Shown: positions 11,051 to 38,795 of the stretch, in pieces | Layout: every line of letters begins with the position of its first letter | Numbering within the stretch: the first letter of the stretch is position 1 | Position numbers and translations under genes: made by a program | Source: Planctomycetales bacterium | GTDB taxonomy: Bacteria; 4484-113; JAFGCY01 | Assembly: GCA_022646745.1 (NCBI GenBank) | Contig: CP060262.1 | Span: 3,897,188 to 3,961,187 of the forward strand | Reading direction: 5' to 3' | DNA: 64,000 nucleotides | Notes under the pieces: model-generated | Seen by the model: the letters and a program-made list of their open reading frames with translations, nothing else | The model's database searches: none | Told to the model about the DNA's origin: nothing

Positions 11051-12460
11051 CTACAGGCCGTGGATCGCGCGGCCGTCCACCGCAAACGCCGCTTCCTTCA
11101 CCGCTTCGCTCAGCGTCGGGTGAGCATGGCAGGTGCGCGCGATATCCTCAGCGCTGGCCTTGAACTCCATCGCCGTGGCGCATTCCGCGATCAGGTCGCC
11201 GGCCTGTGGGCCGATGATGTGCACACCGAGTACGCGGTCCGTCTTCGCATCCGCGAGGATCTTCACGCTGCCATCCGTTTCGTTCATTGAGTGCGCACGG
11301 CCATTGGCCTTGAAGATGAACTTGCCGGCCTTGAACTCGATGCCGGCCTCCTTAAGCTCCTCCTCGGTCTTGCCAACCGTGGCGATCTCAGGGTGCGTGT
11401 AGACGATGCCGGGAATCACGTCGTAGTTCACGTGGCCATAGCCTGTGGCGATCAGCTCCACGCAGGCGATGCCTTCCTCCTCAGCCTTGTGTGCGAGCAT
11501 CGGGCCGTGGATCACGTCGCCGATCGCGAAAATGCCGTCGACATTCGTACGGTAGTGGTCGTCAACCACCACCTGGCCACGCTCATTGAGCTTGACACCG
11601 GCTTCCTCGGCCCCGAGACCGTCCGTGTTGGCCCAGCGGCCGACCACGCTCAGCAGGCGGTCGCATTCCACCGGGTCCTGGCCCTCGATCTCGACGATCA
11701 CCTTCTTGCCCTTGACCTTGGCACCGGTGACCTTGGTCCCGAGGCGGAACTCGAGTCCCTGCTTCTTCATCACGCGCAGGCTCTCGCGGGCCAGGCCGCT
11801 GTCCATGCCGGGCAGGATGCGGTCGAGGTACTCAAGCACGATCACCTTGCTGCCGAGCCGGTGCCAGACACTGCCAAGCTCCAGGCCGATGTAGCCGGCA
11901 CCGATCACGACGAGGGTCTCCGGCACATCCGGGAAGCTCAGGCCGCCCTTCGAACCGCAGATGCGGTCGTTGTCAATTTCCACGCCCCTGAGCTGGGCCG
12001 GCTTGGAGCCGGTGGCGATCATGATGCGCGCGGTCTCGTAGACCTGCTTGTTGCCATCGAAGTCCGTCACCTCGACCTTGCCCGCCGACACAATCCGTCC
12101 GCTGCCACGCAGCCCGGTGACGCCGTTCTTCTTGAACAGGCCGTCAATCCCGCCGGCGTTGATCTGCACAACCTTGTCCTTGCGTGCCATCATCTGCGCC
12201 AGGTTGAGCTTGACGCCCTTGACCTCGATGCCGTGGTCGCCCAGCAGGTCCTTCGCCTGGTGGTAGCGGTAGCTGCTCTCCAGCAGCGCCTTGCTCGGGA
12301 TGCAGCCCACGCGCAGGCAGGTGCCGCCGAACAGCTCGTTCTTGTCAACGCAGGCCGTCTTCAGGCCGAGCTGGCCGGCACGGATCGCGGCGACGTAGCC
12401 GCCCGGGCCGCCGCCGATGACAATCAGGTCGAATTTCTCGTTGCTCATCTCATTCCCCAC
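11051..12460 (-). CDS. lpdA: dihydrolipoyl dehydrogenase (E3 component)
   Basis: FAD-binding GGGPGGYVAAIRAGQLG, redox-active disulfide GGTCLRVGCIPSKAL; downstream of sucAB. True start may be the second ATG at 12448 (MSNEKF...). Confidence 0.93.
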   Translation of the reverse strand: MGNEMSNEKFDLIVIGGGPGGYVAAIRAGQLGLKTACVDKNELFGGTCLRVGCIPSKALLESSYRYHQAKDLLGDHGIEVKGVKLNLAQMMARKDKVVQINAGGIDGLFKKNGVTGLRGSGRIVSAGKVEVTDFDGNKQVYETARIMIATGSKPAQLRGVEIDNDRICGSKGGLSFPDVPETLVVIGAGYIGLELGSVWHRLGSKVIVLEYLDRILPGMDSGLARESLRVMKKQGLEFRLGTKVTGAKVKGKKVIVEIEGQDPVECDRLLSVVGRWANTDGLGAEEAGVKLNERGQVVVDDHYRTNVDGIFAIGDVIHGPMLAHKAEEEGIACVELIATGYGHVNYDVIPGIVYTHPEIATVGKTEEELKEAGIEFKAGKFIFKANGRAHSMNETDGSVKILADAKTDRVLGVHIIGPQAGDLIAECATAMEFKASAEDIARTCHAHPTLSEAVKEAAFAVDGRAIHGL

Positions 12461-12522
12461 AGCAGGCGAACTGCTGTCTGCGCATTGCGCCGGTGTTGAT
12501 TAATCAGGTGATGGAACGCAGC

Positions 12523-12834
12523 TCAGCCCTTGTGGGCATTCCAGGCGTCGAAGCCGCCCTTGAGCACGTATGCGTTGTTCCAGCCTTCCCTCGTGTACTT
12601 GACTGCCCGACCGACAGCTGACGAATCGCCATGTCAATCTCAATAGAAGACGATTTCGCGGTCGCGGTCCAGCTCGTCCTGGATCTTGACGAACTCGTAC
12701 ATCGGGATCGCCGGCTCGATGCGTGTCGCATTGTAGCCAGCCTCCATCATGTACGTGTTGATCACGAGGATGTCAGGGTTCTCGGCAAGCCGCTGTTTCA
12801 GCTCGCTGACCGTCATATGCTTCAGGTCTGACAT
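12523..12834 (-). CDS. single-domain rhodanese-like sulfurtransferase with two in-frame TGA codons at the active-site position (candidate selenoprotein, alternatively pseudogene)
   Basis: ATG 12834 with AAGGAGG 6 nt upstream; rhodanese N-region (...DRDREIVFY); in-frame TGA at 12640-12642 and 12634-12636; same frame continues HGDSSAVGRAVKYTREGWNNAYVLKGGFDAWNAHKG to TGA 12523-12525. Confidence 0.6.
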
Positions 12835-12848
12835 GCGGTTCCTCCTTG

Positions 12849-14066
12849 CTAGATTTCCAGTAGCATGCGTGACGGGTCCTCGATGCAGTCCTTGATGCGC
12901 CTGAGGAATGTCACGCTTTCACGTCCGTCGATCACGCGGTGGTCATAGGTCAGCGCCACGTACATGATCGGCCGGATCTTCACCTCGCCATTGATGGCGA
13001 CGGGTCGCTCGACGATGTTGTGCAGCCCGAGGATGCCGGACTGTGGCGGGTTGAGGATAGGCGTTGACATCATTGAGCCGTACACACCACCGTTTGAGAT
13101 GGTGAAGGTACCGCCCTCCAGCTCTTCGAGCTCGATGTCATTGGCCTGGGCCCGCTTCGCGAAGTCGGCGATTGCCAATTCAGTCTGGGCGAAGCTGAGC
13201 AGCTCGGCATTGCGGATCACGGGTACCACGAGGCCCTTGCCACCACCGATCGCCACGCCGATGTCGTAGTAATTGTGGTAGACCAGGTGGCCGTCATCGG
13301 TGATTTCCGCATTGACCTGCGGGAACTCCTTGAGGGCGTCGATCGCGGCCTTGGCGAAGAAGCTCATGAAGCCGAGCTTGATGCCGTACTTCTTCTCGAA
13401 GCTGTCCTTGTAGCGGTTGCGCAGTTCCATCACCGCGCTCATGTCAATCTCGTTGAAGGTCGTCAGCTGGGCGGTACCCTGCTTGCTTTCCACCAGGCGG
13501 CGCGCGATGGTCTTGCGCATCGGGCTCATGCGCACCTTCTCGACACTGCGCGGTCCCTGCGGGGCAGAGCTATCGCGGGCGGCCTCGGTGTACTTCGCCG
13601 GTGTCGCGGCCTCGGCATCCTCCTTGAGGATGCGGCCGTCCTTGCCATTGCCCTTCACATCCGCGGCATCGATGCCCTTCTGGGCAAGGATGCGCTGGGC
13701 GGAGGGCATTGCCACTCCGGCGGAACCGTTGTCAGACTTTGATGCAGCCGGGGCTTCCTGCTTCGGAGCTTCAGCCCTGGGAGCCTCCTGCTTCGGCTGC
13801 TCCTGCGGCTTCTCGTCCGCCGGGGCCTCGGCCTCCTCCATCGTGGCAATCACCTCGCCGATCTCGCAGGGCTCGCCGGCCGGCTTGAGGATCTTCGTGA
13901 TGATGCCGGAGATCGGAGCCGGCAGCTCCATCGAGGCCTTGTCTGACTCCAGTTCACAGATGAAGTCATCCTCCTCGACGTAGTCACCTTCCTTCTTCAT
14001 CCATTCAGAGACGATCACCTCGGTCACCGACTCTCCGGCGCTCGGGATCCTGATTTCCACAGCCAT
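12849..14066 (-). CDS. sucB: 2-oxoglutarate dehydrogenase E2 component (dihydrolipoyllysine-residue succinyltransferase)
   Basis: N-terminal lipoyl domain ([17 protein letters not shown]), Ala/Pro-rich linker, C-terminal catalytic domain with DHRVIDGRE; AAGGAGA RBS; directly downstream of E1. Confidence 0.9.
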
Positions 14067-14087: not shown

Positions 14088-16913
14088 CTAGGAACCGGCC
14101 TCTTCAGCCTGCTCCCCGGTGATGGCGAAGCTGATCAGTCGCTTCTGCTCCGCCTTGTGCACGGTCTCCGATCCGCTGGCCGGGCTCGGGCTGGCCGGCC
14201 GGCTGACAACGCTGAACGGATGGCCCGCGAATTCATTGCCCCACTTAACGCGCAGGAAGCGCCAGGCACCGAAGTTCTCCGGCTCCTCCTGTACCCAGAC
14301 CAGCGGGGTGCCGGCCTTGTACTTCTTCAGTTCCTTCTTGAGGCTGGCATCCGGCAGTGGATAGATCTGCTCCAGGCGCAGGATCGCCACATTGCTCAGG
14401 CCGCGTGCCTCACGCTCGGCCTCCAGCTCGTAGTACACCTTGCCGCTGCACAGCAGGATGCGTGAGACATCACGGTCCTGGTCGGGCAGGATATCGGGCA
14501 GCACTCGCTGGAAGCGCCGCTCGGACAGGTCATCCCAGTCAGACACCACGCGCGGGTGGCGGAACAGGCTCTTCGGTGACATCACGATCAGCGGCTTGCG
14601 CCAGATGCCCTTCACCTGGCGGCGCAGCAGGTGGAAGATCTGCGCCGGGGTAGTCACGTTGACGACCTGCATGTTGTCATTCGCACACAGGGTCAGGAAG
14701 CGCTCAAGCCTTGCGCTGGAGTGCTCACTGCCCATTCCCTCACTGCCGTGCGGCAGCAGCATCACGAGGCCGGTGAGGTACTCCCACTTCTCCTCGCAGC
14801 TTGAGATGAACTGGTCGATGATCACCTGGGCCGTGTTGACGAAGTCGCCGAACTGGGCCTCCCAGATCACGAGCGCATCCGGGTAGTCCAGGCTGTAGCC
14901 AAACTCGAAGCCGAGCACGCCGGCCTCTGACAACGGGCTGTTGTAGATCCGCACCGGGGCCTGGCCCGTCGAGACATGCTGCAAGGGGCGGTACATCTCG
15001 CCGGTCTCCTGGTCGTGGATCACGGCATAGCGGTGGGCGAAGGTGCCGCGCTCGCAGTCCTGGCCGCTCATGCGCACCGGGATGCCCTCATCCGCCAGGC
15101 TGGCGTAGGCCAGCGCCTCGGCGGCGCTCCAGTCCAGCGGGGCCTCGCCATCCAGCATCTGCTGGCGCTTGGCATTGTGCTTCACCACGTTGTCATGCGG
15201 ATGGAAGCCCTCCGGCAGCCTGATGGTGGCCGCCAGCAGCTCACGCAGGCGCGGTTCCGGCACACGGGTGTCAACCTTGAACAGGTCGCTGTCCAGCCCG
15301 CCCTTGTAGTGCGCCCAGACTTCGGCCAGCGTGCCGTGAGGGCTTTCGACTTCAGGCTTCTCGTCATTCTTGAGGAGATTCAGGTCCTCGCTGAGGGTGC
15401 TGCGGCGCTCCTTGGCAATCGCCTGCGCTTCTGCGCGGGTGATGCCGTTGAGCTTGAGCAGCTTCTCCTGGTAGTTGTCCTTCACCGAGGGGTGCGCCTT
15501 GATCTGCTTGTACATCAGCGGCTGGGTGAGCATCGGCTCATCCTGCTCGTTGTGCCCCCAGTAGCGGAAGCAGTACATGTCGATCACCACGTCGGTCTGG
15601 AAGCGCTGGCGGTAGTCCATCGCAACGTTGACGACCTGGGCCACGGCCTCCGGGTCCTCACCGTTGACGTGGAAGATCGGCACCTCGAGCATCTTGGCGA
15701 TGTCGGAGGCGTAGGTCGTCGAGCGGGAGTCCGCCGGGTCAGTGGTGAAGCCGAGCTGGTTGTTGACGATGATGTGCAGGGTGCCGCCGGTGCGGTAGCC
15801 CTTGAGCTGGCTCAGGTTGAGCGTCTCCTGCACGATGCCCTCGCCGATGAAGGCCGCGTCGCCGTGGATCATGATGCCCAGCCCGTTGCGGCGCTCGTTG
15901 TCTCCATGGCGGTCCATGTTGGCACGGACGCGGCCACTGACGACGGGATTGACAAATTCAAGGTGGCTCGGGTTGAAGCACAGTGACAGGTGCATCTCCC
16001 TGCCGTTGTCACATTGATACTTCGTGCCGTAACCAAGGTGGTACTTCACGTCACCGCGCTTGTTCTCGTAATGCGGGTGCGTGCCCAGGAACTCCTGGAA
16101 GATCTCATAGGGGCGCTTGCCCAGCAGGTTGATCAGCACGTTCATGCGGCCGCGGTGCGACATGCCGATTATCACGCCGTTCATGTCGTTCTCGCCGGCC
16201 TTCTCGAGCGCCATGTAGAGCAGCGGCATCAGGGTCTCGCCGCCCGAGAGCGAGAAGCTCTTCTTGCCCATGAATTTCTTGAAGATGAAGTCCTCAAGGA
16301 TGGTGGCGTCGATCAGGATCTGCAGGATCTTGCGCTGCATGGTGGCGCTCATCTCGAGCCTGTTGCGTGTGCTTTCCATGCGCTGCTCGAGCCAGTCCTG
16401 CTTCTCCGTCGAGTTGATGTGCATGAACTGCACACCGATGCTGCGACAGTAGGTCTCGCGCATCGCCTCGATGATCTCGCGCAGGGTGAGCGTATCCGGA
16501 CCCGCGATCGTCTTGGAGCTGAAGCGCTTCTCCATGTCGGCTTCGGTGAAGCCGTAGTAGTCCGGGTCGAGCTCTTCGAAGTGCGGGCGCGGGCGGCCCA
16601 GCGGGTCCAGCTTGGCGATCATGTGCCCACGGACACGGAACAGGCGGACCAGCTGGTCCACGCGATCCTGCAGGTCCGCAGCCGCCATGCTGGCGCCGTT
16701 GCTGCCATGGCCATTGCCGTTGAAGATGCTGCGCGCGGGAAAGCTCGGTCCGAGCTGGAATTCCCTGGCGCCGCTGTCCCCGTTACCCTCGAAGGACGCA
16801 AAGTACCTGCGCCAGCTCTCGGAAACGCTCTGAGGATCCCTCAGGTAGTCCTCATACAGGCCTTCCATGAAGGCCAGGCTCTGAACATCCAATGATTGGT
16901 CAGGATTATCCAT
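14088..16913 (-). CDS. sucA: 2-oxoglutarate dehydrogenase E1 component
   Basis: about 940 aa; N-terminus MDNPDQSLDVQSLAFMEGLYEDYLRDPQSV matches SucA-type N-termini; start set at internal ATG 16913 (track ORF to 16973 is a GTG extension). Confidence 0.9.
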   Translation of the reverse strand: MDNPDQSLDVQSLAFMEGLYEDYLRDPQSVSESWRRYFASFEGNGDSGAREFQLGPSFPARSIFNGNGHGSNGASMAAADLQDRVDQLVRLFRVRGHMIAKLDPLGRPRPHFEELDPDYYGFTEADMEKRFSSKTIAGPDTLTLREIIEAMRETYCRSIGVQFMHINSTEKQDWLEQRMESTRNRLEMSATMQRKILQILIDATILEDFIFKKFMGKKSFSLSGGETLMPLLYMALEKAGENDMNGVIIGMSHRGRMNVLINLLGKRPYEIFQEFLGTHPHYENKRGDVKYHLGYGTKYQCDNGREMHLSLCFNPSHLEFVNPVVSGRVRANMDRHGDNERRNGLGIMIHGDAAFIGEGIVQETLNLSQLKGYRTGGTLHIIVNNQLGFTTDPADSRSTTYASDIAKMLEVPIFHVNGEDPEAVAQVVNVAMDYRQRFQTDVVIDMYCFRYWGHNEQDEPMLTQPLMYKQIKAHPSVKDNYQEKLLKLNGITRAEAQAIAKERRSTLSEDLNLLKNDEKPEVESPHGTLAEVWAHYKGGLDSDLFKVDTRVPEPRLRELLAATIRLPEGFHPHDNVVKHNAKRQQMLDGEAPLDWSAAEALAYASLADEGIPVRMSGQDCERGTFAHRYAVIHDQETGEMYRPLQHVSTGQAPVRIYNSPLSEAGVLGFEFGYSLDYPDALVIWEAQFGDFVNTAQVIIDQFISSCEEKWEYLTGLVMLLPHGSEGMGSEHSSARLERFLTLCANDNMQVVNVTTPAQIFHLLRRQVKGIWRKPLIVMSPKSLFRHPRVVSDWDDLSERRFQRVLPDILPDQDRDVSRILLCSGKVYYELEAEREARGLSNVAILRLEQIYPLPDASLKKELKKYKAGTPLVWVQEEPENFGAWRFLRVKWGNEFAGHPFSVVSRPASPSPASGSETVHKAEQKRLISFAITGEQAEEAGS

Positions 16914-17152
16914 ATCCCGATAAGGCCAAATTCCTGATTTCCCGGCAGACAATATAAACAAAACAGCCCTCACCCGACCCTGCGGAAACAGTGTGGGTGA
17001 AGGTCAAACCTCACCGGGATGCATACCTCTGGCTTCTGAAGTGTACCATCGGTATAAGGTGCGATATCGTGCCTTAGGCTAATTTAGCCAGCGTTTTTCC
17101 CTGATTGGATCTAATGCTTAGCCAGTCTGCTAATTAAAACCAGCGGGAGCCT

Positions 17153-28503: not shown

Positions 28504-29688
28504 TCAGGCGCCCTGGCTTGTGATCGGCAGTCCTACACGCCACAGCGTGACCGGCAGGTTGGTCTGCACACTGAGGTCGACGAGCCAGCACTGGCGGTCG
28601 TGCGCCGGGATTATACGCATGCCTGTCTGCAAGCCCTGGTACAGCCAGAGCCGGTTGCCTGCGGAGTCATAACAGAACAGCAGTCCGGTGACGGGGGTTG
28701 CCACCATTGATGTTGCATTTGGAGATCCGGCAGTGGGATCCGGATACTCCGCCGGGAAACCGCTTACGAATGTCTCACCGTTGAGGCCAGCCACGATGTC
28801 ACGCACGACGAGATCATCCGGCCACCGGAGTGCAAGCGACTGCCCATCAGCATCGAGGCCCTGCAAGCCATCGCCGATCCGCAGCCACAGGTTGCCTCCG
28901 CTGCTGCGCAATTCCCTGATCTCTGCTCCTGGCAATGCATTCCAAAGCACTTCGCCGGATGGATCCGCGCACTCCACACCGCCGTCAATTGCGGGATAGG
29001 CAATCCTCCCCGCATCCAGCAGGCCGGCATGGTGGCTGGCACTGTACTTCTTCCAGCGCAGTTCACCCTCCAAGTCCAGGCAGTACAGGAACCCGTCGTC
29101 ACTTGCCGCATAGGCATTGCCATCATCCAGCAGCAGGCGGGCCGGCGCTCCCATCAGGAAATTCCATTGCTCCTGCCCTTCGTAACTGAAACAGGTCACG
29201 GACTGTTCAAGGATCGTCGTCAACAGCACATCATCCAGCAATATACATGTGTCGGCAGCGGGATACTGCGAACCGGGCCAGAATGGCTCCGGTGTCCAGA
29301 GTTCACCGCTGCGGGCGAAGCCGGTATCCGGGACATCGTTGCGCCAGACCTCGAGGTAGCCGTCTCGCCGGGTTGTTGCCAGCCAGCCGTCCGGTCCCAG
29401 CAGCAGTTCACGGTCGGCCAGCACCTCCTGGTCGGGCAGCATCATCGGCCGGCTGCCGTAGTAGTTCCAGCCACCCAGTGAGGCATCGTCCTCAATCAGT
29501 CCATCGTTGAAGTTCATCATCACTCGCAGCCGGTTGCCGGCCTGCAGCTGGTAATGGCCGCCGGGGTAATCGCCACTGGCCAGCTCCATCGCCTTTGGCA
29601 CGCGGCTCTTGCCAGCCTGCCCGCTGCAGCCTGTAAGCAGGCTGATTGAAATGAGAACTGCGAACGAAAAACTTGCCAGCCGGCTCAT
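28504..29688 (-). CDS. PQQ-like (BamB-type) beta-propeller repeat lipoprotein, paralog 1 of 8
   Basis: Lipobox LLTGC; repeated G.LY.LD..G.L.W blade motifs (FLYCLDLEGELRW); ATG overlaps upstream stop (ATGA); GGGAGG RBS. Confidence 0.75.
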   Translation of the reverse strand: MSRLASFSFAVLISISLLTGCSGQAGKSRVPKAMELASGDYPGGHYQLQAGNRLRVMMNFNDGLIEDDASLGGWNYYGSRPMMLPDQEVLADRELLLGPDGWLATTRRDGYLEVWRNDVPDTGFARSGELWTPEPFWPGSQYPAADTCILLDDVLLTTILEQSVTCFSYEGQEQWNFLMGAPARLLLDDGNAYAASDDGFLYCLDLEGELRWKKYSASHHAGLLDAGRIAYPAIDGGVECADPSGEVLWNALPGAEIRELRSSGGNLWLRIGDGLQGLDADGQSLALRWPDDLVVRDIVAGLNGETFVSGFPAEYPDPTAGSPNATSMVATPVTGLLFCYDSAGNRLWLYQGLQTGMRIIPAHDRQCWLVDLSVQTNLPVTLWRVGLPITSQGA

Positions 29689-30911
29689 CGCGCACCTCCC
29701 AGCCTGCAGATGCGGTCAGGCCCGTCATCGCTGACAAGCAGCAGCTTGTCCTCGCCAAAACCGTAGATGCGGTCGCAGTGCAGTTCCAGCCAGACCGGCA
29801 CATTGACCGGCACGCTGAGGGCCGCGGTTTCAAGCTGCAACTGCAGAGTCCCCGCGCTGGATGAAGATACGTAAGCGAACTCGAAGTCCGGCAACTCGCC
29901 ACGCATCATCCCGCTGAGCATGCCTGGCAGGCCTGCCAGCAGCGGATACTGCGCGCGGCCGGCATACATCAGCAGCTGGTCATCCTGGATCGCCGTGCCA
30001 TCCAGCAGGTACAGCTCGCTCAGTTCAGTGCTGCGTGTCTCGGTCCCATCCACGCTGTAGCGTGCATACTTGCCATCCCGGAAGCGGGCGATGCCATCCT
30101 CTGTCAGCCAGCAGTACCTGCTTGGTCCGGCGCTGTAACTGCTGAGCTGGCCCAGCTGACTGGCAACAAGCTTCCCGTCCAGCCTGCTGAGGCTGGTGCT
30201 CCTGCCCCGCTCCAGCACCATGCCACTTTCGGCCAGCTCAATCCCGGAGACATCCCAGATGTTGCCACCTCCGACCAGCTCCATCTGCCCGTCCCGACTG
30301 ACCCGCACACGTCCGCCATTGGAGACAGTCTGCAGGTTTCCCTCACTGTCCACCTCCATCCAGGGCCGGCTGGCCAGAATAGATGTCGCATTGGGTATCC
30401 TGCGGACCCAGAGCTTCTTGCCATTGGCATCAAGCCCGTAAACCAGGGCGGTTGCCATAGTGAAGAATGTCGCCTGCGCTTCGTTGCCTCGACGCACGCG
30501 AGTATGCATTTCATTGTGTACAGGCTCGTAACGCCAGGATTCCGATCCCTCTGCATCGATTGCGATAGCCCTGCCATAGCGACCGGTCAGCACCATCAGG
30601 CCATCCCCTGCCTGCACGCTGCTGAGTGTGAAATGGGCCGGTGCCGCGAATTGCCAGTCCAGCCTGCCTTCCGTGCTGATCCGCGTTATTCGGCCGGAAC
30701 GCTCCTGCAGTACCAGGCCGCCCAGTCCATCGTCAATCGGTTCAAGCAGCAGCTCGCCGAAATCCGGATCGCCAAGTGTATGCAGGCTCAGCAGTTCATT
30801 CGGACTGAACAGGCGGGATGCAAGCATCATCAGCATGCCGGCCAACCAGCAAAGCAGCAGCGCGGCACTCACCATCACGGCCCTGCGTTGCCAGCGCTGC
30901 ATTGTATCCAT
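29685..30911 (-). CDS. PQQ-like beta-propeller repeat protein with N-terminal membrane anchor, paralog 2 of 8
   Basis: N-terminal TM (VMVSAALLLCWLAGMLMMLA); blade motif ALVYGLDANGKKLW. Confidence 0.75.
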   Translation of the reverse strand: MDTMQRWQRRAVMVSAALLLCWLAGMLMMLASRLFSPNELLSLHTLGDPDFGELLLEPIDDGLGGLVLQERSGRITRISTEGRLDWQFAAPAHFTLSSVQAGDGLMVLTGRYGRAIAIDAEGSESWRYEPVHNEMHTRVRRGNEAQATFFTMATALVYGLDANGKKLWVRRIPNATSILASRPWMEVDSEGNLQTVSNGGRVRVSRDGQMELVGGGNIWDVSGIELAESGMVLERGRSTSLSRLDGKLVASQLGQLSSYSAGPSRYCWLTEDGIARFRDGKYARYSVDGTETRSTELSELYLLDGTAIQDDQLLMYAGRAQYPLLAGLPGMLSGMMRGELPDFEFAYVSSSSAGTLQLQLETAALSVPVNVPVWLELHCDRIYGFGEDKLLLVSDDGPDRICRLGGAR

Positions 30912-30984
30912 GACCTGATTCTAGCTCAGCGGGGCACTGTCCCTGAGCTTTCCCTCCCATTACATGACTGGATCACCAACAGTG

Positions 30985-32124
30985 TTACTCGGGTGCGGAA
31001 AGCAGGACGAGGCCCTGCTTATCCTGCGTTGCGGTAAACAAGGTGCCATTGCTTCCGGTATGGGCAAAATAGGGGTAACCTTCCATCTTTTCACCGCGCC
31101 AGAGTACCTTTCCCTGTGGATTGATGCACAGCCAGTGGAAGGGAGTATTCACACGGTTTGCTATCCGGCCCCCAAACCAGCTGTTGCGGAAATCCCTGTC
31201 ATAGATCCTCAAAAAGGTGTATCCATCCCTGGAAAGCTCCAAACTGGACCAGCCAATTGATTCCAGCCTGCAGCGCCAGAGCCGCTTTCCATCCGCATCG
31301 TAGCAATCAACCCCCCAGCTCCGCTGGATCGCAAATCGATTTCCGGCATCATCGACTTTTGCATACACGTGGCCCAGCTTCTCACCGGAGTGATCCTGGA
31401 TCCAGAGTTCCGTTCCTTCCCAATCCAGGCATACGAGGTTCAGTGAATCAGATCCCGTGACAAGTATCCTGTCACCGAAGGCCTGAGCCTGCTGCACACC
31501 CTTGCGGGTCCAGCTGACCCGCCCCTGGCTGTCCAGGCAGGCAAGCTCCCCGTCCCGCCCGAACACCAGCAGGTGCTGGTAGTCCTGCGACTGGCTGAAG
31601 CTGATCATGTATCCGCCCATGTATTCCCAGCTGGGATTGCCCTGCTGGTCAAATCCGACAATCTGCTGCTGGTCATACATCACGAACGGATCCGTTCCGA
31701 GGAAGCCCATGCTGCCATCCTGGCCGGAGTACCTGACAAAGTTGCCAGAACTTCCATCAGATGCGGTATCCGGCCGACTCAGCAATACTGAGTCATTGCC
31801 ACGGTCGCTGAAAACGAGCCGCACCCCGCCACTGGGCCCGTTGTCGGGGAAGAGGTACTGTCCGTCCGGCCCCGCTACCATCTCGGTCAGCTGGCTCGAA
31901 TAGACCGGGTAGCCCTGTTGCGATGCCTGGCTGGCGGTTGGCTTGTCACCTGCCTCCTTCTCCGCATCGATGCTGAGCATGCCGCTGCCCTGCCAGTTGA
32001 GCACAGTATTGTCATCTGAAACAAGCATCGGCCCGAGCACATTCAGTTCACGCTCCATGGCAACAGGAACCCTGCCGCAGGATACCAGTAGCAGCAATGC
32101 CATCAACAGGACAGCGCTATACAT
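30985..32124 (-). CDS. PQQ-like beta-propeller repeat lipoprotein, paralog 3 of 8
   Basis: Lipobox LLLVSC; blade motif LLVFGRDGELACLDSQGRVSW. Confidence 0.75.
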   Translation of the reverse strand: MYSAVLLMALLLLVSCGRVPVAMERELNVLGPMLVSDDNTVLNWQGSGMLSIDAEKEAGDKPTASQASQQGYPVYSSQLTEMVAGPDGQYLFPDNGPSGGVRLVFSDRGNDSVLLSRPDTASDGSSGNFVRYSGQDGSMGFLGTDPFVMYDQQQIVGFDQQGNPSWEYMGGYMISFSQSQDYQHLLVFGRDGELACLDSQGRVSWTRKGVQQAQAFGDRILVTGSDSLNLVCLDWEGTELWIQDHSGEKLGHVYAKVDDAGNRFAIQRSWGVDCYDADGKRLWRCRLESIGWSSLELSRDGYTFLRIYDRDFRNSWFGGRIANRVNTPFHWLCINPQGKVLWRGEKMEGYPYFAHTGSNGTLFTATQDKQGLVLLSAPE

Positions 32125-33412
32125 CGGCAGCCTCCAGCGCCAGGCACCTGAGCTGCTTGTCGTTGCTGATCAGGTAGATCCGGTCCTTGCTGCAGTGCAT
32201 CGCCGAGAAGCCGTTGAAGTTCTGCCCGCTGCCGATATCCAGTGCAGCCAGCCTCTCCCCTTCGCGGATCACTTCCAAGCGGAACACCTGGGACTGCTGC
32301 AGCCTCGGATTCAGCTGGCCGGCAGCCGGCGAAGCGAAAGGCAGGGCTGCAGAGACCATGGGAAACAAGGCGGACAGGTGTTCCAGTGCGGTCAGCAGGT
32401 TGTCAGTCCTGCCCGTCACCAGTGCGAATGCATCCCCCAGGTCCTGGGCATCCGAAACACTGCCGGCTTCAAGTGGAATGCTCCATTGCTCCTCAAGCTG
32501 GTAGTCCAGCGCACGCACCACGGCATCACTGGTCGGCACGAGGATCAGCCCGGCTGAACTGGCAACCTGGTTGGGACTGATGTAGAAACCGGGCGATGTA
32601 CCCAGCTGATTGATCTTCTTGTGGATCTGCTCCCCGTCCCTGACCAGGCAGAGCTGGTTGCCACCGGAGTACAGCAGTTCGCCGTTGCCGACAACTCCAC
32701 GCAGGTCCAGTATCTCCCCGCTGAAGTAGATCTGCTGTCCACCGGCCGTCTTCGCGGGAGTTTTCGGCTTGCTGGGACGTTCGAGCGGAATGCGCTCGCC
32801 ACTAATTGTGTAAATGCTCACGCTGGAGAAATCGTTGCACAGGAAGCTGTAGCTGCCGGCGTACTCGAAATAGCTTGGCAGCCCAAACGGGTCATACATC
32901 TGCCTGGTATTGACAACCCAGCATGGCTCGCCGGCCGCGCTGATTCCGTAGAGCAGGATGCCCTGCTTGAGGAAGGCGACCGCCTGGCTGCCTTCCCGTG
33001 GCTCAAGCAATTCACGGTACCGCTGCGGATCGGGCCGGCAGTTCCACAGTTCCTGTCCCTGTGCATCGAGGGCAAGCAGCTCACCCTTGCCTGTGGTCAG
33101 GTAGGTGATGGCATCTACCCGCTGGATCGGTGAGCGGATACTGTCAATCGTGTGCTCCCGGCTCCATAACACCCTGCCATCGGGAGTGATCATCTGGAGC
33201 TGTCCGGCCAGCATGTCCTGGGTGTAGACAAGGCAGCCATCTTCGGATGCATCCACTACGGCACACCATGTCGCATCAAGCTGCCTGCTCCAGAGCTGCG
33301 TGAGCCCACTGTCCCTGCCGATTGCCAGCCTGAGCGTAATCCAGCCAGCCGCCCACAGCACGGCGTAAACTGCAATTGCCAGCACCATTTTCCGGTGGAT
33401 CCTGCTTGCCAT
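32117..33412 (-). CDS. PQQ-like beta-propeller repeat protein with N-terminal membrane anchor, paralog 4 of 8
   Basis: N-terminal TM (MVLAIAVYAVLWAAGWITL); blade motif LLALDAQGQELW; 8-nt overlap with next gene. Confidence 0.75.
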   Translation of the reverse strand: MASRIHRKMVLAIAVYAVLWAAGWITLRLAIGRDSGLTQLWSRQLDATWCAVVDASEDGCLVYTQDMLAGQLQMITPDGRVLWSREHTIDSIRSPIQRVDAITYLTTGKGELLALDAQGQELWNCRPDPQRYRELLEPREGSQAVAFLKQGILLYGISAAGEPCWVVNTRQMYDPFGLPSYFEYAGSYSFLCNDFSSVSIYTISGERIPLERPSKPKTPAKTAGGQQIYFSGEILDLRGVVGNGELLYSGGNQLCLVRDGEQIHKKINQLGTSPGFYISPNQVASSAGLILVPTSDAVVRALDYQLEEQWSIPLEAGSVSDAQDLGDAFALVTGRTDNLLTALEHLSALFPMVSAALPFASPAAGQLNPRLQQSQVFRLEVIREGERLAALDIGSGQNFNGFSAMHCSKDRIYLISNDKQLRCLALEAADV

Positions 33413-33510
33413 GTTTCCCTGCCAGTCCCTGCAAAGATGCCCGTTCAGTTATTGCTCCGGGCAAACAATGGTTCAATTGTAAATCAGGACGCTGCCGGAC
33501 CGTCCCGGGT

Positions 33511-34692
33511 TCAGAAGCCACGCCACATGGAACCCGGCGGGCCATGGAAGGTGAGTACGCTGTTGTTCCCCACCTCGAACTGGCCGATCAGACCACCGGA
33601 GAAGGTCAGGGCTCCGTGGCTGCGCACCATCTCCCCATCGGCGGCCTGCCAGATGACCTGCCCGTCGGGATCCACACAGAACCCAAGCTCAGAGATGCGG
33701 AACGGGAACATCCCTTCGCGCTCGACAGAGCCGTTGTAGGCTTGCTGGTAACGGACAAAGGCAAACATATGACCGTCCGGCGCACCAACGAAGTAGGAGA
33801 AGCCGGTGTCGCCAACCGGCAGTTCGGTACGCCACAGCTCCTCACCTGCCGTGCTGATGCATAGTGCGGTCCTGCGATAATCGTGAGCAAAAATCCGTCC
33901 ATTGGACACGGCGGTCGGCAGGCAGGTAATGTCCATCTCGAGCTCCCATAGCAGCTTGCCATCGCTGTCCAGGGCTCGAAGCCTGCCGTCAGTGCTGTAA
34001 CCGTAGAAGCTGCTGCCATCCGTCACGCAGCTCTGCATTTCGGGATTGCTCCAGAGCAATTCTCCGTTCCCGTCCAGCGCAAGGATCATCCCGTAGAAGC
34101 AGCTGATATACAGCCTTTCCCCATTCGTACTCGATTGGAGTTGGGCATTGCTCCCTACATTGAATTCCCAAAGCGGATTGCCCTGCAGGTCGAATGCTCC
34201 GAGCATCTGTGCGTCATCGTCGGCAATCACCACCATCCCGTCCAGGAACGCCGCCTCATTGCCAAACTGGCAGTCAAAGGAACGGCCATAGGTTGACAGC
34301 GTAAGTTCGGTTTCCAGCGGCACCATCACGGACGGGTCCGCCCGCGACACAAGCAGGGGCCGGGAGTATGAATCAGTGATGGCCAACCAGTCGTCATTCC
34401 AGCCGCGGATCTCGAGTCGACCGGGATTGAATGTCATTTCCGAGCCATCCGGCCAGACGGCATCCATGCCTGTACCCTGTGCAATCAGCTGCTCCGGTTC
34501 ACCGGGCACCATGCGATAAAGGCTGAAAGTCGGCATGTCCAGTGAAAGGATGCTGCCATCCTCCAGCTCGGCATAGTAGTAACCGGAGAGGGAGTAACTG
34601 CGCGTGTCTGATGCCGGCAGCACTTCAGGCTGGGCTTGCAACATAGCTGATGGGATGGCAACAAGCAGCAGTGCGATGACGAGCGCTTTCAT
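33511..34692 (-). CDS. PQQ-like beta-propeller repeat exported protein, paralog 5 of 8
   Basis: Signal peptide MKALVIALLLVAIPSAMLQA; blade motifs AFDLQGNPLW, ILALDGNGELLW, LRALDSDGKLLW, VDPDGQVIW. Confidence 0.8.
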   Translation of the reverse strand: MKALVIALLLVAIPSAMLQAQPEVLPASDTRSYSLSGYYYAELEDGSILSLDMPTFSLYRMVPGEPEQLIAQGTGMDAVWPDGSEMTFNPGRLEIRGWNDDWLAITDSYSRPLLVSRADPSVMVPLETELTLSTYGRSFDCQFGNEAAFLDGMVVIADDDAQMLGAFDLQGNPLWEFNVGSNAQLQSSTNGERLYISCFYGMILALDGNGELLWSNPEMQSCVTDGSSFYGYSTDGRLRALDSDGKLLWELEMDITCLPTAVSNGRIFAHDYRRTALCISTAGEELWRTELPVGDTGFSYFVGAPDGHMFAFVRYQQAYNGSVEREGMFPFRISELGFCVDPDGQVIWQAADGEMVRSHGALTFSGGLIGQFEVGNNSVLTFHGPPGSMWRGF

Positions 34693-35888
34693 AGTCCCGC
34701 CTCCAGACCATATACCCAGACGCCTTGCCTCGCATGCCAGACCACTATGCCTCCTCCCGCAATCGCTGACATGTGATAGTCCTCGGAAAGTACGGGGCCA
34801 AACAGCGACTGCTGCCAGGCGATCCGATCGTCTGAAACCTCAAGCATGATGATGTCACTTACGAATGCTGATCCATCCTTGCCCGCAGGTAGCTCCTCGG
34901 CGGCAGGCAGGCCCACGAGAGCAGTCCCGGCTGCCTGGCCATCCGCCAGTGGCGTGCTGCCCAGCAGCAGCACGCGAGTCCCGGACTGCACCACATCAAG
35001 CACCTGCCCTGGCAGGTCCAGCGCGTCACTGTGAACCACCAGGCTGTCGTCAAGCAGGCCAAACACCCTGCCCCAGCGCCTGCCTCCCCAGCCAATGTTG
35101 CCAGTTCCGAACTGGAAGTCCTTGAATCCGCCGCTGTCAAGCGACTCCGTGCGCATGCTCGACTCCAGCGAGAAGCTGAGCTGTTGGTCCAGCAGCTGCA
35201 TACGGCCATCATCGCCATACACCAGCATCCGTCCGTCCGGCAGCACCGCCGCATGGTCCCCCCAGCGGGTGCCTTCCGGGCCGTTGATACTGTGCTTGAT
35301 GCCTTGGCTGTCCAGCCAAAGGAGCTCCCGGTCCGGCGTACGATACATCCACAGCAGGTCCAGCGGCAGCTGCTGCGGGTCAAATGGATCCAGCCAGGTG
35401 TCGTAGAGTTCTCCGTTGTCAGACATCCAGCACAAGCCGCCGCTGCTGTCCAGTCCGTAATCGAAGCGCCCGTCGGAGGTCCGCACTACTGCAGGCGCTG
35501 CGTCCGTCCCCGGCAGGTGCTCCAGTGCTTTCCACGGTTCGGGATGGAATTCCCAGGCCGGCTGCCCTTGCCTGTCCACTGCCCAAGCCTGGCCACCCAT
35601 GCCGGTGAATATCGTGAACCCGGGAAACTCGTAGCAGCGCCAGGCAATGTTCCAGCGCAGCCAGTCCGCATGCCAGATGTGCTGTCCCGTGGCATCATAG
35701 TGGGAGATGCCAAGGTTGACATCCTTGACATACAGGCCGCCCTTGTTGCCAACGACCACGGATGATTCGCCTGCTGCCGCTGGCAGGCTCCACTTCAGCT
35801 GCAGCGGATCATCCTGCGCCATCGCCACCCCGCCAGCCAGCAGGCATGCCAGCAAGGCCATAAGTCCCGTCACCCTTGTTCGTGTCAT
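34689..35888 (-). CDS. PQQ-like beta-propeller repeat exported protein, paralog 6 of 8
   Basis: Signal peptide ...LLACLLAGGVAMA; blade motif AWAVDRQGQPAW; stop overlaps next start (ATGA). Confidence 0.75.
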   Translation of the reverse strand: MTRTRVTGLMALLACLLAGGVAMAQDDPLQLKWSLPAAAGESSVVVGNKGGLYVKDVNLGISHYDATGQHIWHADWLRWNIAWRCYEFPGFTIFTGMGGQAWAVDRQGQPAWEFHPEPWKALEHLPGTDAAPAVVRTSDGRFDYGLDSSGGLCWMSDNGELYDTWLDPFDPQQLPLDLLWMYRTPDRELLWLDSQGIKHSINGPEGTRWGDHAAVLPDGRMLVYGDDGRMQLLDQQLSFSLESSMRTESLDSGGFKDFQFGTGNIGWGGRRWGRVFGLLDDSLVVHSDALDLPGQVLDVVQSGTRVLLLGSTPLADGQAAGTALVGLPAAEELPAGKDGSAFVSDIIMLEVSDDRIAWQQSLFGPVLSEDYHMSAIAGGGIVVWHARQGVWVYGLEAGL

Positions 35889-35941
35889 GGATGGATTGTA
35901 AGGCAGGGACGCTTACTATGCACAATCGCTGTTCTACCGGC

Positions 35942-37105
35942 TTATTGTTGGCTTCCTGATGAATCGACCGGATCGAGGCAGACCAAGGTTTCCGGCTTGC
36001 GCTCATAGACGTACAACCGGCCATCATAACCAGGCAGGTAGTTGCCATTGTGAGAAGCAGTCTTAGTCGAACTCCAGAGGAACCTGCCCTGTGGATCAAT
36101 GCAGCTCCACCGACTATCCCTGACGGTACTACCTGTTGTGAATCTCGATAAAAACATGCTGCGTCCAATACTCCAGTCAATTCGCCAGATAAAGACATAT
36201 CCATCCGGACTGATGTAATACGGCGAAGTGAACTCGTCGCCCATGTCATACACCCATTGTTCCTTGCCTTCCCGGTCATAGGCATGCAGGAACTGGCCAC
36301 TGCCGACAACGCACAGCGGGCTGCGTGGCTCCGTCAGCAGGCGTGGGAATTCCATGTCCAGAAGTGGAACCTGCCACTGCTCTTTGCCATCCCAATCAAG
36401 GCACAGCAGGTTTCCCTTATCGTCCAGCGTAACCAGCCTGTCACCCATGGACAGGGTGGAGAAGCAGCCCATGCGCTTCCAGAGCAGCTCTCCCTGCGGG
36501 CTGAGGCAATGCAACGAGCCGGACTGGCAACCAAGAGCAATTCGCTTGTCGTCATCTGCCCTTAGCAGGTAGCTGCCTGCGTCGCCGTTGAAGCGCCAGG
36601 CAGGCTGCAGCGCAGAGTCATATGCCTGCACGAACTGGCTGTTGTAGAGGATGACCGGATTGCCATCTAGGGAGCATGCGTCAAAGCGGTCACTCATGTT
36701 TACTCGCGGGGGCCAGCCGGATCCTTCCGGAATGCCGAGTTCGACATATTCATTGCCAGCATTGCCATCCAGCACCCAGGTCCGTCCGTCAGCGGCGACG
36801 ATGTAGCGTCCCTCACCGATCGGGACGAGCTGGTTGAGGCCCTGGCTCCTGAGGGCATCCGGCAGCAAAGGACTTCCGGATCCAGCGGAGCTGGCCTGCC
36901 CCAGGTCTACGCCGGAAAACTCACCAGCTGCTGAAACCTCTGCCATTCCCCTGCCGTGGTAAAGCCGCAGGCTGTTGTCAGGCAGCACTTCCATGCTGCC
37001 ATACAACCTGGTCTCATATGTGTGCTGTACGTTCTCCTCTTCCGCACGGGACATATCGCAGGCGGACAGGATCATTGCGCAAAGCAGCAGGGCGATGATC
37101 CTCAC
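35942..37105 (-). CDS. PQQ-like beta-propeller repeat lipoprotein, paralog 7 of 8
   Basis: Probable GTG start at 37105 (GGAG upstream, GTGA overlap with upstream stop) giving lipoprotein signal MRIIALLLCAMILSAC; blade motifs LHCLSPQGELLW, LLCLDWDGKEQW. Track ORF extends to 37138 (TTG). Confidence 0.7.
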   Translation of the reverse strand: MRIIALLLCAMILSACDMSRAEEENVQHTYETRLYGSMEVLPDNSLRLYHGRGMAEVSAAGEFSGVDLGQASSAGSGSPLLPDALRSQGLNQLVPIGEGRYIVAADGRTWVLDGNAGNEYVELGIPEGSGWPPRVNMSDRFDACSLDGNPVILYNSQFVQAYDSALQPAWRFNGDAGSYLLRADDDKRIALGCQSGSLHCLSPQGELLWKRMGCFSTLSMGDRLVTLDDKGNLLCLDWDGKEQWQVPLLDMEFPRLLTEPRSPLCVVGSGQFLHAYDREGKEQWVYDMGDEFTSPYYISPDGYVFIWRIDWSIGRSMFLSRFTTGSTVRDSRWSCIDPQGRFLWSSTKTASHNGNYLPGYDGRLYVYERKPETLVCLDPVDSSGSQQ

Positions 37106-38376
37106 TGGCCTGCTCCAATCACATAGCAGTCCAGCCAATCTCCATTGCTTATGTACACCCGGGAGCCGCTGACTGCCAGGCGAAACCTCACATTCCCGAT
37201 GTACGGGATGCTGATGCTGCCAAGTATCCGCTCATCACTGACGAGCTGTAACCTGCGGTCCGTGTTATAGCCGTAGAACCCCTGGCTTTTGAGGTACTGT
37301 GTCTTGCCGGGGAACAGGAAGCTGTCCAGTGGCTTGATGCTGTCACCGAGTTTGCGCAGGCTGCGAGCAATGTTGTCAGCATCCTGGGTCATCAATACGA
37401 AGCCGGCGTCACAGGGCTTCACTTCGTCAATCCGGCTGCTGATCGGTGCATGCTCCGCAATCTGCCGGCCCTGCAGGTCAAGGATTGCCAGGCTGGAATC
37501 ATTGAACAGCACGAGCAGGCGATTGCCGCCACAGAATGACTTATCAATCCTGACAGCGGTGGAGGGAATTGGAACCGTGAAGATCTGTGCGTCCTTGCCA
37601 TCCATTAGCTGGAAGCGATCCTCACATCGCAGCAGGGGCACCTCTCCTTCAGTCAGTCCAACCAGCTGGACCAGCTCAGGAGCTGGTGCCAGTGAAGCAT
37701 GCTCAACCGGCTTTGGCTCACTGAGCAATTCAGTGGACGGAACGGAGACGCTGCCATCCGGCCAGGCAGTTGTCATGTTGGCCCAGTTGATCACATAAGC
37801 CGCCTGCCCGTTGATTGTCATCCGGGAGTGCAGGTGCTCGATCCACGGGTCTGCTCCAGGGTTGACCGTCCAGCACAATTCTCCATCAGTCCTCAGGCCG
37901 TACAGCATGGAGCCATTCTGGCTGTATAACTCGGCAGTTGGCGCAGTTGCCAGTTTCAGTGGGTCGCTGAATTCGCGGGACTGCTCATCGTATGACCACT
38001 GCCTGTTCCCGGCTGCATCCACTGCATACATCCGGCCGTCAGTCAGGCTGATGTAGCAGTTGCCATCCTGCTCATGGACGCAGTCCTTCAAGTAGACTCC
38101 TGACTCGCGAAACGTCCAACGGACCTCTCCACTCTGTGGGTCGATCGAGATTACGCCTGCACTTATTCCACGGTTGTCCAGCAGGTACAGCCCGCCCTCA
38201 TTTCCAGCCTGCAGATTCATGTACTCGTAAGCCAAGGGGATCCGCCAGGCGTGTGTGAATGGGGATTGCTCGCGTCGGCCCTGCCCCAGGTACAGCGCTC
38301 CCGCCAGCCACAGCAGCAGGCAGGCCAGCATCGTGCCGGCAATCAGCCTGTGCTCGCGGGATGTCGCTTGCTGCAT
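37102..38376 (-). CDS. PQQ-like beta-propeller repeat protein with N-terminal membrane anchor, paralog 8 of 8
   Basis: Start set at ATG 38376 (track extension to 38472 overlaps upstream gene); TM LIAGTMLACLLLWLAGALYL; blade motifs MYAVDAAGNRQW, LYGLRTDGELCW. Confidence 0.7.
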   Translation of the reverse strand: MQQATSREHRLIAGTMLACLLLWLAGALYLGQGRREQSPFTHAWRIPLAYEYMNLQAGNEGGLYLLDNRGISAGVISIDPQSGEVRWTFRESGVYLKDCVHEQDGNCYISLTDGRMYAVDAAGNRQWSYDEQSREFSDPLKLATAPTAELYSQNGSMLYGLRTDGELCWTVNPGADPWIEHLHSRMTINGQAAYVINWANMTTAWPDGSVSVPSTELLSEPKPVEHASLAPAPELVQLVGLTEGEVPLLRCEDRFQLMDGKDAQIFTVPIPSTAVRIDKSFCGGNRLLVLFNDSSLAILDLQGRQIAEHAPISSRIDEVKPCDAGFVLMTQDADNIARSLRKLGDSIKPLDSFLFPGKTQYLKSQGFYGYNTDRRLQLVSDERILGSISIPYIGNVRFRLAVSGSRVYISNGDWLDCYVIGAGQ

Positions 38377-38399
38377 CTGCTGCAAGCATAGCGCAGAAG

Positions 38400-38795
38400 C
38401 TAGTGTTCCTCCCAGACGATCAGCGCCGCATCCGCCAGGTCGTTGTCTGGCATTCCGAACAAGCGCCGCCACATCTGCTTGAACTCGGCCTCGTCATGCG
38501 GCCACTGTTCCAGCCACTCCCTGAATTGCGGCCACTGGAACAGCGTCGGGATGTCCCCCACCCCGCGGCAGTAGTCGTGGATCATCTCCCAGCAGATCGG
38601 CACCACCGTGCCCGGCTTCTGTGCCGTGCTGCCGCGCATGAAATTCACCAGCACGCCGCGCTCGGGCTTGTCCTCGCCGCGCACCATCGCCACCCCGGTG
38701 CCCCGGTCCACGGCGTAGTAATGCGGCTCGATGTATACGATCTGCACGGCTAGGATGATAGCCGAGGGCGGCTGCTGGGAACCTCTGGCTTGCAC
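38400..38795 (-). CDS. hypothetical Trp-rich small protein, first gene of the minus-strand propeller operon
   Basis: 131-aa ORF (GTG start) ending 21 nt before paralog 8; no recognised domain. Confidence 0.4.
   Translation of the reverse strand: MQARGSQQPPSAIILAVQIVYIEPHYYAVDRGTGVAMVRGEDKPERGVLVNFMRGSTAQKPGTVVPICWEMIHDYCRGVGDIPTLFQWPQFREWLEQWPHDEAEFKQMWRRLFGMPDNDLADAALIVWEEH

Follow-up and report, generated by a model that had tools for sequence, protein, structure and literature searches.

A putative bacterial SECIS hairpin behind two closely spaced in-frame UGA codons in a predicted rhodanese-domain selenoprotein gene

We studied a 64,000-nt stretch of DNA (hereafter the window; positions 3,897,188 to 3,961,187 of contig CP060262.1, assembly GCA_022646745.1) assigned to a Planctomycetales bacterium, and within it a small minus-strand gene predicted to encode a rhodanese-domain selenoprotein. 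The frame of this gene is crossed by two UGA codons, here UGA1 and UGA2, at positions where selenocysteine (Sec, U) is predicted, and both are followed by a short hairpin that resembles a bacterial selenocysteine insertion sequence (SECIS; bSECIS for the bacterial kind). The features on which the analysis turns are these, in window coordinates.

12523 to 12834, minus strand: predicted rhodanese-domain selenoprotein gene of 103 codons (ATG 12834-12832, stop TGA 12525-12523; PF00581 match)
12640 to 12642, minus strand: in-frame UGA1, codon 65, predicted Sec65, at the canonical catalytic Cys position of rhodaneses
12634 to 12636, minus strand: in-frame UGA2, codon 67, predicted Sec67, at the Sec position of the C-x-U ('LYCAU') rhodanese selenoproteins
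12602 to 12618, minus strand: putative bacterial SECIS hairpin of 17 nt, proposed from sequence, folding, register conservation, silent-site constraint, and the bSECIS criteria
12618 to 12613, 12612 to 12608, and 12607 to 12602, minus strand: 5' arm GCUGUC, apical loop GGUCG, and 3' arm GGCAGU of that hairpin

Translated with both UGAs as Sec, the gene reads MSDLKHMTVSELKQRLAENPDILVINTYMMEAGYNATRIEPAIPMYEFVKIQDELDRDREIVFY-U-D-U-HGDSSAVGRAVKYTREGWNNAYVLKGGFDAWNAHKG, which places the two residues in the local context EIVFY-U-D-U-HGDSS. Reading Cys for each U gives a protein made up of one rhodanese domain (Pfam PF00581, E = 7e-11, 42.9 bits versus a gathering cut-off of 22.2). In alignments, U65 falls on the catalytic Cys65 of GlpE and on the Cys of rhodanese domains with solved structures; the closest match of the protein in the PDB is the C-terminal part (residues 459-550) of the 551-residue NADH oxidase NoxA-3 (6pfz). 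The full rhodanese fold requires read-through of both UGAs, as the frame past them supplies the domain up to the conserved GG..W motif. Global reassignment of UGA was ruled out: TGA terminates 22 of the 37 window genes, the rhodanese gene included, and since it is the commonest stop in the window, the genetic code is not reassigned. A scan of the window for other TGA-interrupted genes gave only adjacent genes or antisense frames.

The hairpin, which reads ACTGCCCGACCGACAGC on the plus strand at 12602-12618 and GCUGUC-GGUCG-GGCAGU as the reverse complement, has a 6-bp stem (G.U, C-G, U-A, G-C, U.G, and C-G) closed by the 5-nt loop GGUCG. This is the stem-loop of the original prediction, which had placed a loop containing G and U on a stem 16 nt after UGA2 and 22 nt after UGA1, and both its structure and its distances are borne out by the sequence. 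When the RNA is numbered from the U of UGA1 as 1, nt 25-30 pair with 36-41 around a loop at 31-35. The first stem base is the 16th nt past UGA2 and the 22nd past UGA1, and with the UGAs 6 nt apart, 27 nt separate UGA1 from the apical loop and 21 nt separate UGA2 from it. In the bSECIS model of bSECISearch (Zhang & Gladyshev 2005; summary in PMC13188914 Fig. 2), the loop measures 3-9 nt and the stem 4-16 bp, one of the first two loop positions is G, with G or U as the usual next base, the loop lies 16-37 nt from the UGA, and the minimum free energy (MFE) is -7.5 kcal/mol or lower. Set against this model, the window hairpin agrees in loop (5 nt), stem (6 bp), loop sequence (G at positions 1 and 2, then U), and spacing for both UGAs, while its energy is borderline (-7.6 kcal/mol with flanks, -6.9 kcal/mol bare). 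It departs from the model in having neither a lower stem nor a bulge, and in being one element after two UGAs.

Protein searches for orthologues returned only 64-aa stubs ending at UGA1, from metagenome-assembled genomes (MAGs; L001 is labelled UBP7) and metagenomes; gene callers truncate the gene to 64 aa. At the DNA level, UGA-GAU-UGA and the open frame after it are retained in about seven distinct orthologue sequences from independent assemblies, which share 61-98% identity across the N-terminal 64 residues, and past the UGAs their frame runs to a conserved C-terminus, again with a TGA stop. The ratio of nonsynonymous to synonymous substitution rates (dN/dS) 3' of the UGAs is about 0.2-0.5 among orthologues, about equal to that of the N-terminal part. 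Two sequences were left out of the statistics: L009 carries many G-to-T differences from its cluster, one of them in the hairpin (GGGCAG to GGTCAG), plus non-conservative residues, which looks like sequencing damage, and L014, whose N-terminal half matches one orthologue type and whose C-terminal half matches that of the window, is probably chimeric through assembly.

These data bear on one alternative, namely that the UGAs are true stops, in a decayed gene or behind a 64-aa open reading frame (ORF), and that the hairpin acts as a regulatory or terminator element in the intercistronic stretch from sucB to lpdA. Such a view would fit the annotation, in which gene callers record the 64-aa stub only, and the lack of Sec machinery in the window or fetched loci. 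It is at odds with the purifying selection on the frame past the UGAs, which completes the rhodanese domain to the GG..W motif, with the retention of both UGAs across lineages whose silent sites are saturated, and with the absence of a U-tract after the hairpin, and we give it hardly any credence.

More distant relatives extend the pattern. An exhaustive HMMER search with an N-terminal profile found 17, most of them stubs whose last residues are either ...VFY, where UGA takes the first position, or ...[LF]YC[ASN], where it takes the third, and in the DNA of distant relatives the motif reads U-G-U (L039 and L041), U-N-U (L040), or C-A-U (YCAU; L042 and L043). Five 'VFY-stop' clusters were found, and the four with readable DNA are all U-x-U, none U-x-C. 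UGA1 is retained in four deep U-x-U lineages and in all orthologues, and UGA2 also in the C-A-U homologues; lying at the catalytic Cys position and kept across lineages, UGA1 should therefore encode a functional residue there. A tblastn search on plasmids added all-Cys homologues (YCACP, YCDCP, and YCSCP) in Burkholderiaceae replicons (megaplasmids or chromids), namely L044 (Cupriavidus sp. EM10 p352-1), L045 (Paraburkholderia sp. PGU19 p1), and L046 (Caballeronia sp. M1242). For every fetched homologue the best NCBIfam match is NF041203, at 37-69 bits. A scan of JGI metagenomes by protein pattern gave no match, and the DNA pattern TTYTAYTGAGAYTGANAYGGNGA gave 10 chance matches there, none with a rhodanese frame. 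As a separate observation, the C-A-U rhodanese gene of L043 (1501-1809) is followed, some 500 nt downstream, by a gene encoding a UGSC domain (PF24696). UGSC-containing proteins are among the listed selenoprotein families, a hint that the organism may carry selenoprotein genes in a cluster.

Across the close orthologues every base of the hairpin is identical. The wider comparison used an ungapped alignment of 66 columns and 11 sequences from six deep lineages, covering U-x-U and C-x-U homologues, and here the hairpin stands in the same register in all 11 sequences, with 65 of 66 cells paired (98.5%) versus 23-48% for slid partners. Three of the six pairs show compensatory changes: 25:41 (G.U, G-C, U-A), 27:39 (U-A, C-G), and 30:36 (C-G, G-C). 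RNAalifold returned this hairpin alone as the consensus of the 66-nt alignment and kept it in a 105-nt alignment, where no second conserved structure appeared besides a 4-bp helix in the LKGG codons. Among homologues, loops are 3-7 nt and stems 6-8 bp, with the loop sequences GGUCA, CGGCG, CGUCG, GGUCG, and (C)GAUCG(A), and the distant homologues have a stronger hairpin (-9.3 to -18.5 kcal/mol) with probabilities of 0.5-1.0, mostly at least 0.8, that is dominant in most contexts tried.

A number of observations weigh against taking the hairpin for a SECIS, and several concern how the single sequence folds. The window hairpin is energetically marginal: the -7.6 kcal/mol refers to 23 nt, that is, with 3-nt flanks (z = -3.5), and 7.8% of 4000 random in-frame codon positions in window genes precede a perfect bSECIS-model hairpin at -7.5 kcal/mol or lower. 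The 81-nt region shows no excess structure (z = +0.59; 149 of 200 shuffles fold as well). In 75 nt of free RNA the hairpin pairs have a probability of 0.01-0.03, losing out to a longer-range pairing with GGCUGG at 58-63, and in longer free context other folds win in both the window sequence and L007 (P 0.00-0.03), as they do over the hairpin of L025 in the full 1-75 context. With only positions 13-60 or 19-50 free, the hairpin reaches a probability of 0.92-1.0. Rfam gave no match at gathering score in the window and none at E <= 10 in 12540-12680. The spacing to the loop (21 and 27 nt) exceeds the 18 nt of the Escherichia coli fdhF SECIS, and the independent lineages number only six. Neither selA, selB, selD, nor tRNA-Sec, nor indeed a tRNA of any kind, was found in the 64-kb window or fetched loci, and SelA, SelB, and SelD domains were found neither among the 30 window ORFs scanned with Pfam nor in the Pfam-annotated called genes of the fetched neighbourhoods.

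Coding adds further difficulties. The conserved peptide A-[VA]-x-x-A-[VAE] by itself fixes four of the six pairs, and the probability of the full hairpin given the protein is 0.06-0.17 per lineage. Of 18 cells in the same register, 12 are paired in the all-Cys homologues; L045 even has a 5-bp hairpin, with the loop UUAGU lacking G at the first two positions, which may be a coding by-product or a fossil SECIS. For these reasons, plain counts of pairs and of covarying positions overstate the RNA signal. Together with a hairpin that is neither unusual nor dominant in the window sequence alone, these points favour the idea that it is a by-product of the peptide A-V-G-R-A-V, whose GCN and GUN codons happen to pair, with no role in RNA, the UGAs being recoded by some other signal or context.

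Silent sites speak against such a by-product. The free pairs 27:39 and 30:36 are third codon positions, and, with the protein held fixed in the null, they are formed in Sec forms in 11 of 12 lineage-by-pair cases (P ~1e-4) versus 4 of 6 in Cys forms (P = 0.18). Loop position 33, the third position of codon 75, is U in five of six Sec lineages (P ~8e-4, given an expectation from T-ending codon usage of 12-34%) versus none of three Cys forms. Codons 73-77 (GCT GTC GGT CGG GCA), five consecutive four-fold codons that hold most of the hairpin, are invariant in close orthologues, whereas variation is seen at 21 of the 25 other four-fold codons whose amino acid is invariant (permutation P = 0.02), and four of the five are minor codons (13-20% usage). 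As nothing else within 105 nt is conserved save the LKGG-codon helix, a by-product without RNA function seems to us improbable. The significance of the hairpin rests on comparative data, not on the single sequence, and on these data we consider it likely that 12618-12602 is the bSECIS of this gene, whose product would be a small selenoprotein with a rhodanese domain and Y-U-D-U-H-G as its active-site motif. The SECIS likeness first noticed from position and loop composition is in this way supported by Cys/Sec pairing, register, silent-site constraint, and agreement with the bSECIS model.

The original prediction had also drawn an alternative stem across UGA2, the 5' arm of which lies as follows.

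12632 to 12639, minus strand: 5' arm GAUUGACA of the alternative 8-bp stem, over UGA2, with its partner at 12616-12609; in the MFE fold, not conserved

This stem, GAUUGACA (4-11) with UGUCGGUC (27-34), does exist in the sequence and belongs to the 81-nt MFE fold of the window region (-17.3 kcal/mol), so that it could be imagined as the functional structure, masking UGA2 or switching against the hairpin. Its conservation does not hold up: 78% of cells are paired, a level matched by 116 of 500 shuffles, there is no compensatory change, and six of the eight pairs depart only by unpaired cells. To judge from ribosome footprint size, the 5' arm would moreover lie inside the ribosome with either UGA1 or UGA2 in the A site. 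We rejected the stem and think a function for it very improbable. Two further candidates were also rejected. The fdhF-like lower helix UUGAC (over UGA2)/GUCAA is 71% paired, as in shuffles, shows no compensatory change, and is lost in L025 and in distant homologues; the inner hairpin UGGCG-AUU-CGUCA, which lies between UGA2 and the putative SECIS in the MFE fold, does not keep its register in orthologues and is absent from the RNAalifold consensus.

For comparison with the window hairpin, the fdhF SECIS of E. coli was folded from a sequence confirmed in 5419 genomes of that species. Both elements are coding-region hairpins with GGUC in the apical loop, and this loop motif is the only one shared. 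In fdhF the UGA-to-loop distance is 18 nt, a U is bulged, and a lower helix extends back toward the UGA, whereas the window hairpin has its loop 21 and 27 nt away, lacks a bulge, and has a candidate lower helix that is not conserved. A published description (PMC8659212) puts the upper stem-loop of E. coli 11 nt past the UGA. The window hairpin does not share this fdhF-type arrangement, with its bulged U and its G23-U24 in the loop: its stem begins after 15 nt counted from UGA2 and after 21 nt counted from UGA1.

By analogy with E. coli, a complex of SelB, GTP, and Sec-tRNASec would bind the apical loop GGUCG, with G32 and U33 exposed and the hairpin just outside the mRNA entry channel, and would then deliver Sec once a UGA occupies the A site. 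The hairpin would be the ancestral SECIS of UGA2, because it keeps the same register in the C-A-U homologues, which have UGA at the second position alone. The codon for the catalytic Cys would also have been turned into UGA in the U-x-U forms, at 27 nt from the loop; UGA is one base change from UGC or UGU. As there is no further conserved structure, a single hairpin most likely acts for both UGAs, which would entail two successive SelB deliveries. The stem would start at +25 with UGA1 in the A site or at +19 with UGA2, compared with +15 in fdhF; at these positions it would lie outside the mRNA channel and could therefore stay folded for both deliveries. PMC4513850 gives the recoding efficiency in E. 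coli as 30-40% per UGA, and two successive recodings at that rate would therefore leave a low full-length yield unless the present system is more efficient. A limited literature search found no discussion of one bSECIS serving two nearby UGAs.

A narrower reading is that the hairpin is the SECIS of UGA2 only, and that UGA1 is subject to inefficient near-cognate read-through, to frequent termination giving a 64-aa peptide, or to selenium-dependent attenuation that also limits translation of the rest of this gene. The register of the hairpin is fixed relative to UGA2 in the C-A-U homologues, with UGA1 6 nt farther away, the E. coli upper stem-loop stands closer still (11 nt; PMC8659212), and no second conserved structure is available to UGA1, all of which would suit this view. 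Against it count the place of UGA1 at the catalytic Cys, its retention by all orthologues and by four deep U-x-U lineages, and a distance of 27 nt that falls within the published range of 16-37 nt; and the readable 'VFY-stop' lineages are, four out of four, U-x-U and never U-x-C, as expected with one machinery for both codons. We therefore hold a SECIS confined to UGA2 to be unlikely, and prefer a hairpin shared by the two codons.

Around the UGAs themselves, the two-fold codons (TTC-TAT before, GAT between; 12631-12645, minus strand) are invariant in all close orthologues, and TAT and GAT, next to the UGAs, are minor synonymous codons (26% and 34% usage). These may reflect a codon-context requirement for recoding at both UGAs, separate from the hairpin.

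Rhodanese selenoproteins are already recognised as a varied group, with five forms listed in a 2026 review, including the C-x-U form (NF041203) and the two-Sec UxxxxU TsoB. The window protein has its best NCBIfam match in NF041203, 'rhodanese_LYCAU' (rhodanese-like selenoprotein form 3, CxU), at 54.7 bits. Like that family, it is a single rhodanese domain, both being about 100-125 aa long, with Sec two residues past the catalytic Cys position, and the C-A-U relatives L042 and L043, which are below the NF041203 cut-off, share its hairpin register. It differs in that the Cys codon of the CxU motif is itself UGA (U-D-U) and its score falls under the cut-off of 115, which makes it a relative, not a member. 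The TsoB rhodanese/DsbD fusion (NF045694, UxxxxU) likewise has a rhodanese domain with two closely spaced Sec residues, but it is a fusion family of 572 positions with a different Sec spacing, and the match here is 15-19 bits versus a cut-off of 805. A further likeness is the UxU rhodanese-related sulfurtransferase of Olavius algarvensis symbionts, reported in 2007 (Zhang & Gladyshev 2007, PMC1976440) as a rhodanese selenoprotein that acquired the UxU motif by evolving a second Sec, as in the window gene. That form comes from deltaproteobacterial symbionts, while the window lineage is one of UBP7-labelled MAGs with the gene inside a sucA-sucB-lpdA operon, and the likeness is drawn from the motif. 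The window gene is a further predicted bSECIS/U-x-U rhodanese selenoprotein, outside the NF041203 cut-off and of a kind already reported in 2007.

The operon and the translation start of the rhodanese gene are laid out as follows.

14088 to 16973, minus strand: sucA/E1 gene (ORF; Pfam domains of orthologous genes)
12849 to 14066, minus strand: sucB-type E2 gene, directly upstream of the rhodanese gene (ORF; Pfam domains of orthologous genes)
12841 to 12847, minus strand: Shine-Dalgarno sequence AAGGAGG, 6 nt 5' of the rhodanese ATG, read from the sequence
11051 to 12448, minus strand: lpdA-type E3 (dihydrolipoamide dehydrogenase) gene, directly downstream (ORF; Pfam Pyr_redox_2 and Pyr_redox_dim in orthologues)

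Motifs of the AGGAG type before the ATG are also kept in orthologues. The rhodanese cistron is fixed between E2 and E3 of the sucA-sucB-lpdA operon in all orthologues with enough flanking DNA (the window, L007, L025, and L029), and the distant C-A-U homologue L042 has the same slot, in the order E2, rhodanese, DUF3224, and then an Lpd 60% identical to the window Lpd. The fixed slot suggests a functional link of the (seleno)rhodanese with the lipoamide/E3 system.

Taken as a whole, the proposed arrangement would be one minimal bSECIS hairpin directing two successive SelB-dependent insertions at UGAs that are 6 nt apart and lie 27 and 21 nt from the loop, to give a vicinal U-x-U catalytic centre and potential diselenide, in a rhodanese that is integral to the 2-oxoglutarate dehydrogenase operon (E1-E2-rhodanese-E3) and may act as a selenium-based redox or persulfide partner of lipoyl/E3. 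For this combined picture we put the chances at about even. If true, bacterial SelB-SECIS spacing would be far more tolerant than the E. coli paradigm, which sets a fixed distance between SECIS and UGA, and the family would offer a natural test of SelB spacing tolerance and of reloading within two codons, as well as a natural template for diselenide proteins. For annotation, all public copies, now called 64-aa hypothetical stubs, would in fact be 103-residue rhodaneses with two predicted Sec residues. For evolution, C-x-C, C-x-U, and U-x-U forms can be compared within one family, C-A-U and U-D-U even in the same operon slot, and the presence of the hairpin in Sec forms and only in part in Cys forms shows what appears to be a stepwise Cys-to-Sec conversion reusing an existing SECIS. 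For physiology, the E2-E3 slot hints at a link between seleno-rhodanese and lipoamide chemistry.

Within the 74-nt spacer from the rhodanese stop to the lpdA ATG at 12448 lies another hairpin (ACAGCAG-UUCGC-CUGCUGU, 7 bp, 12459-12477, minus strand), directly 5' of the lpdA ribosome-binding region GGGGAAUGAG, and the orthologue spacers of L002, L003, and L025 have differing self-complementary GC-rich stretches at the equivalent place, as judged by eye. The spacer hairpin is unlike an intrinsic terminator, because no U-tract follows it, and it could be an mRNA processing, stability, or translational-coupling element.

Two blocks elsewhere in the window were also noted. On the plus strand, ten successive ORFs of 392-1750 aa fill a block of about 20 kb (38864-59040) with a strong coding signature (high GC content at third codon positions), and none of the ten has a Pfam match at E <= 1e-5. 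On the minus strand, 28504-38472 holds eight tandem genes of about 380-456 aa, five of them with weak PQQ_2/BamB-like beta-propeller matches, and this array looks like a set of paralogous secreted or lipoprotein-like propeller proteins.

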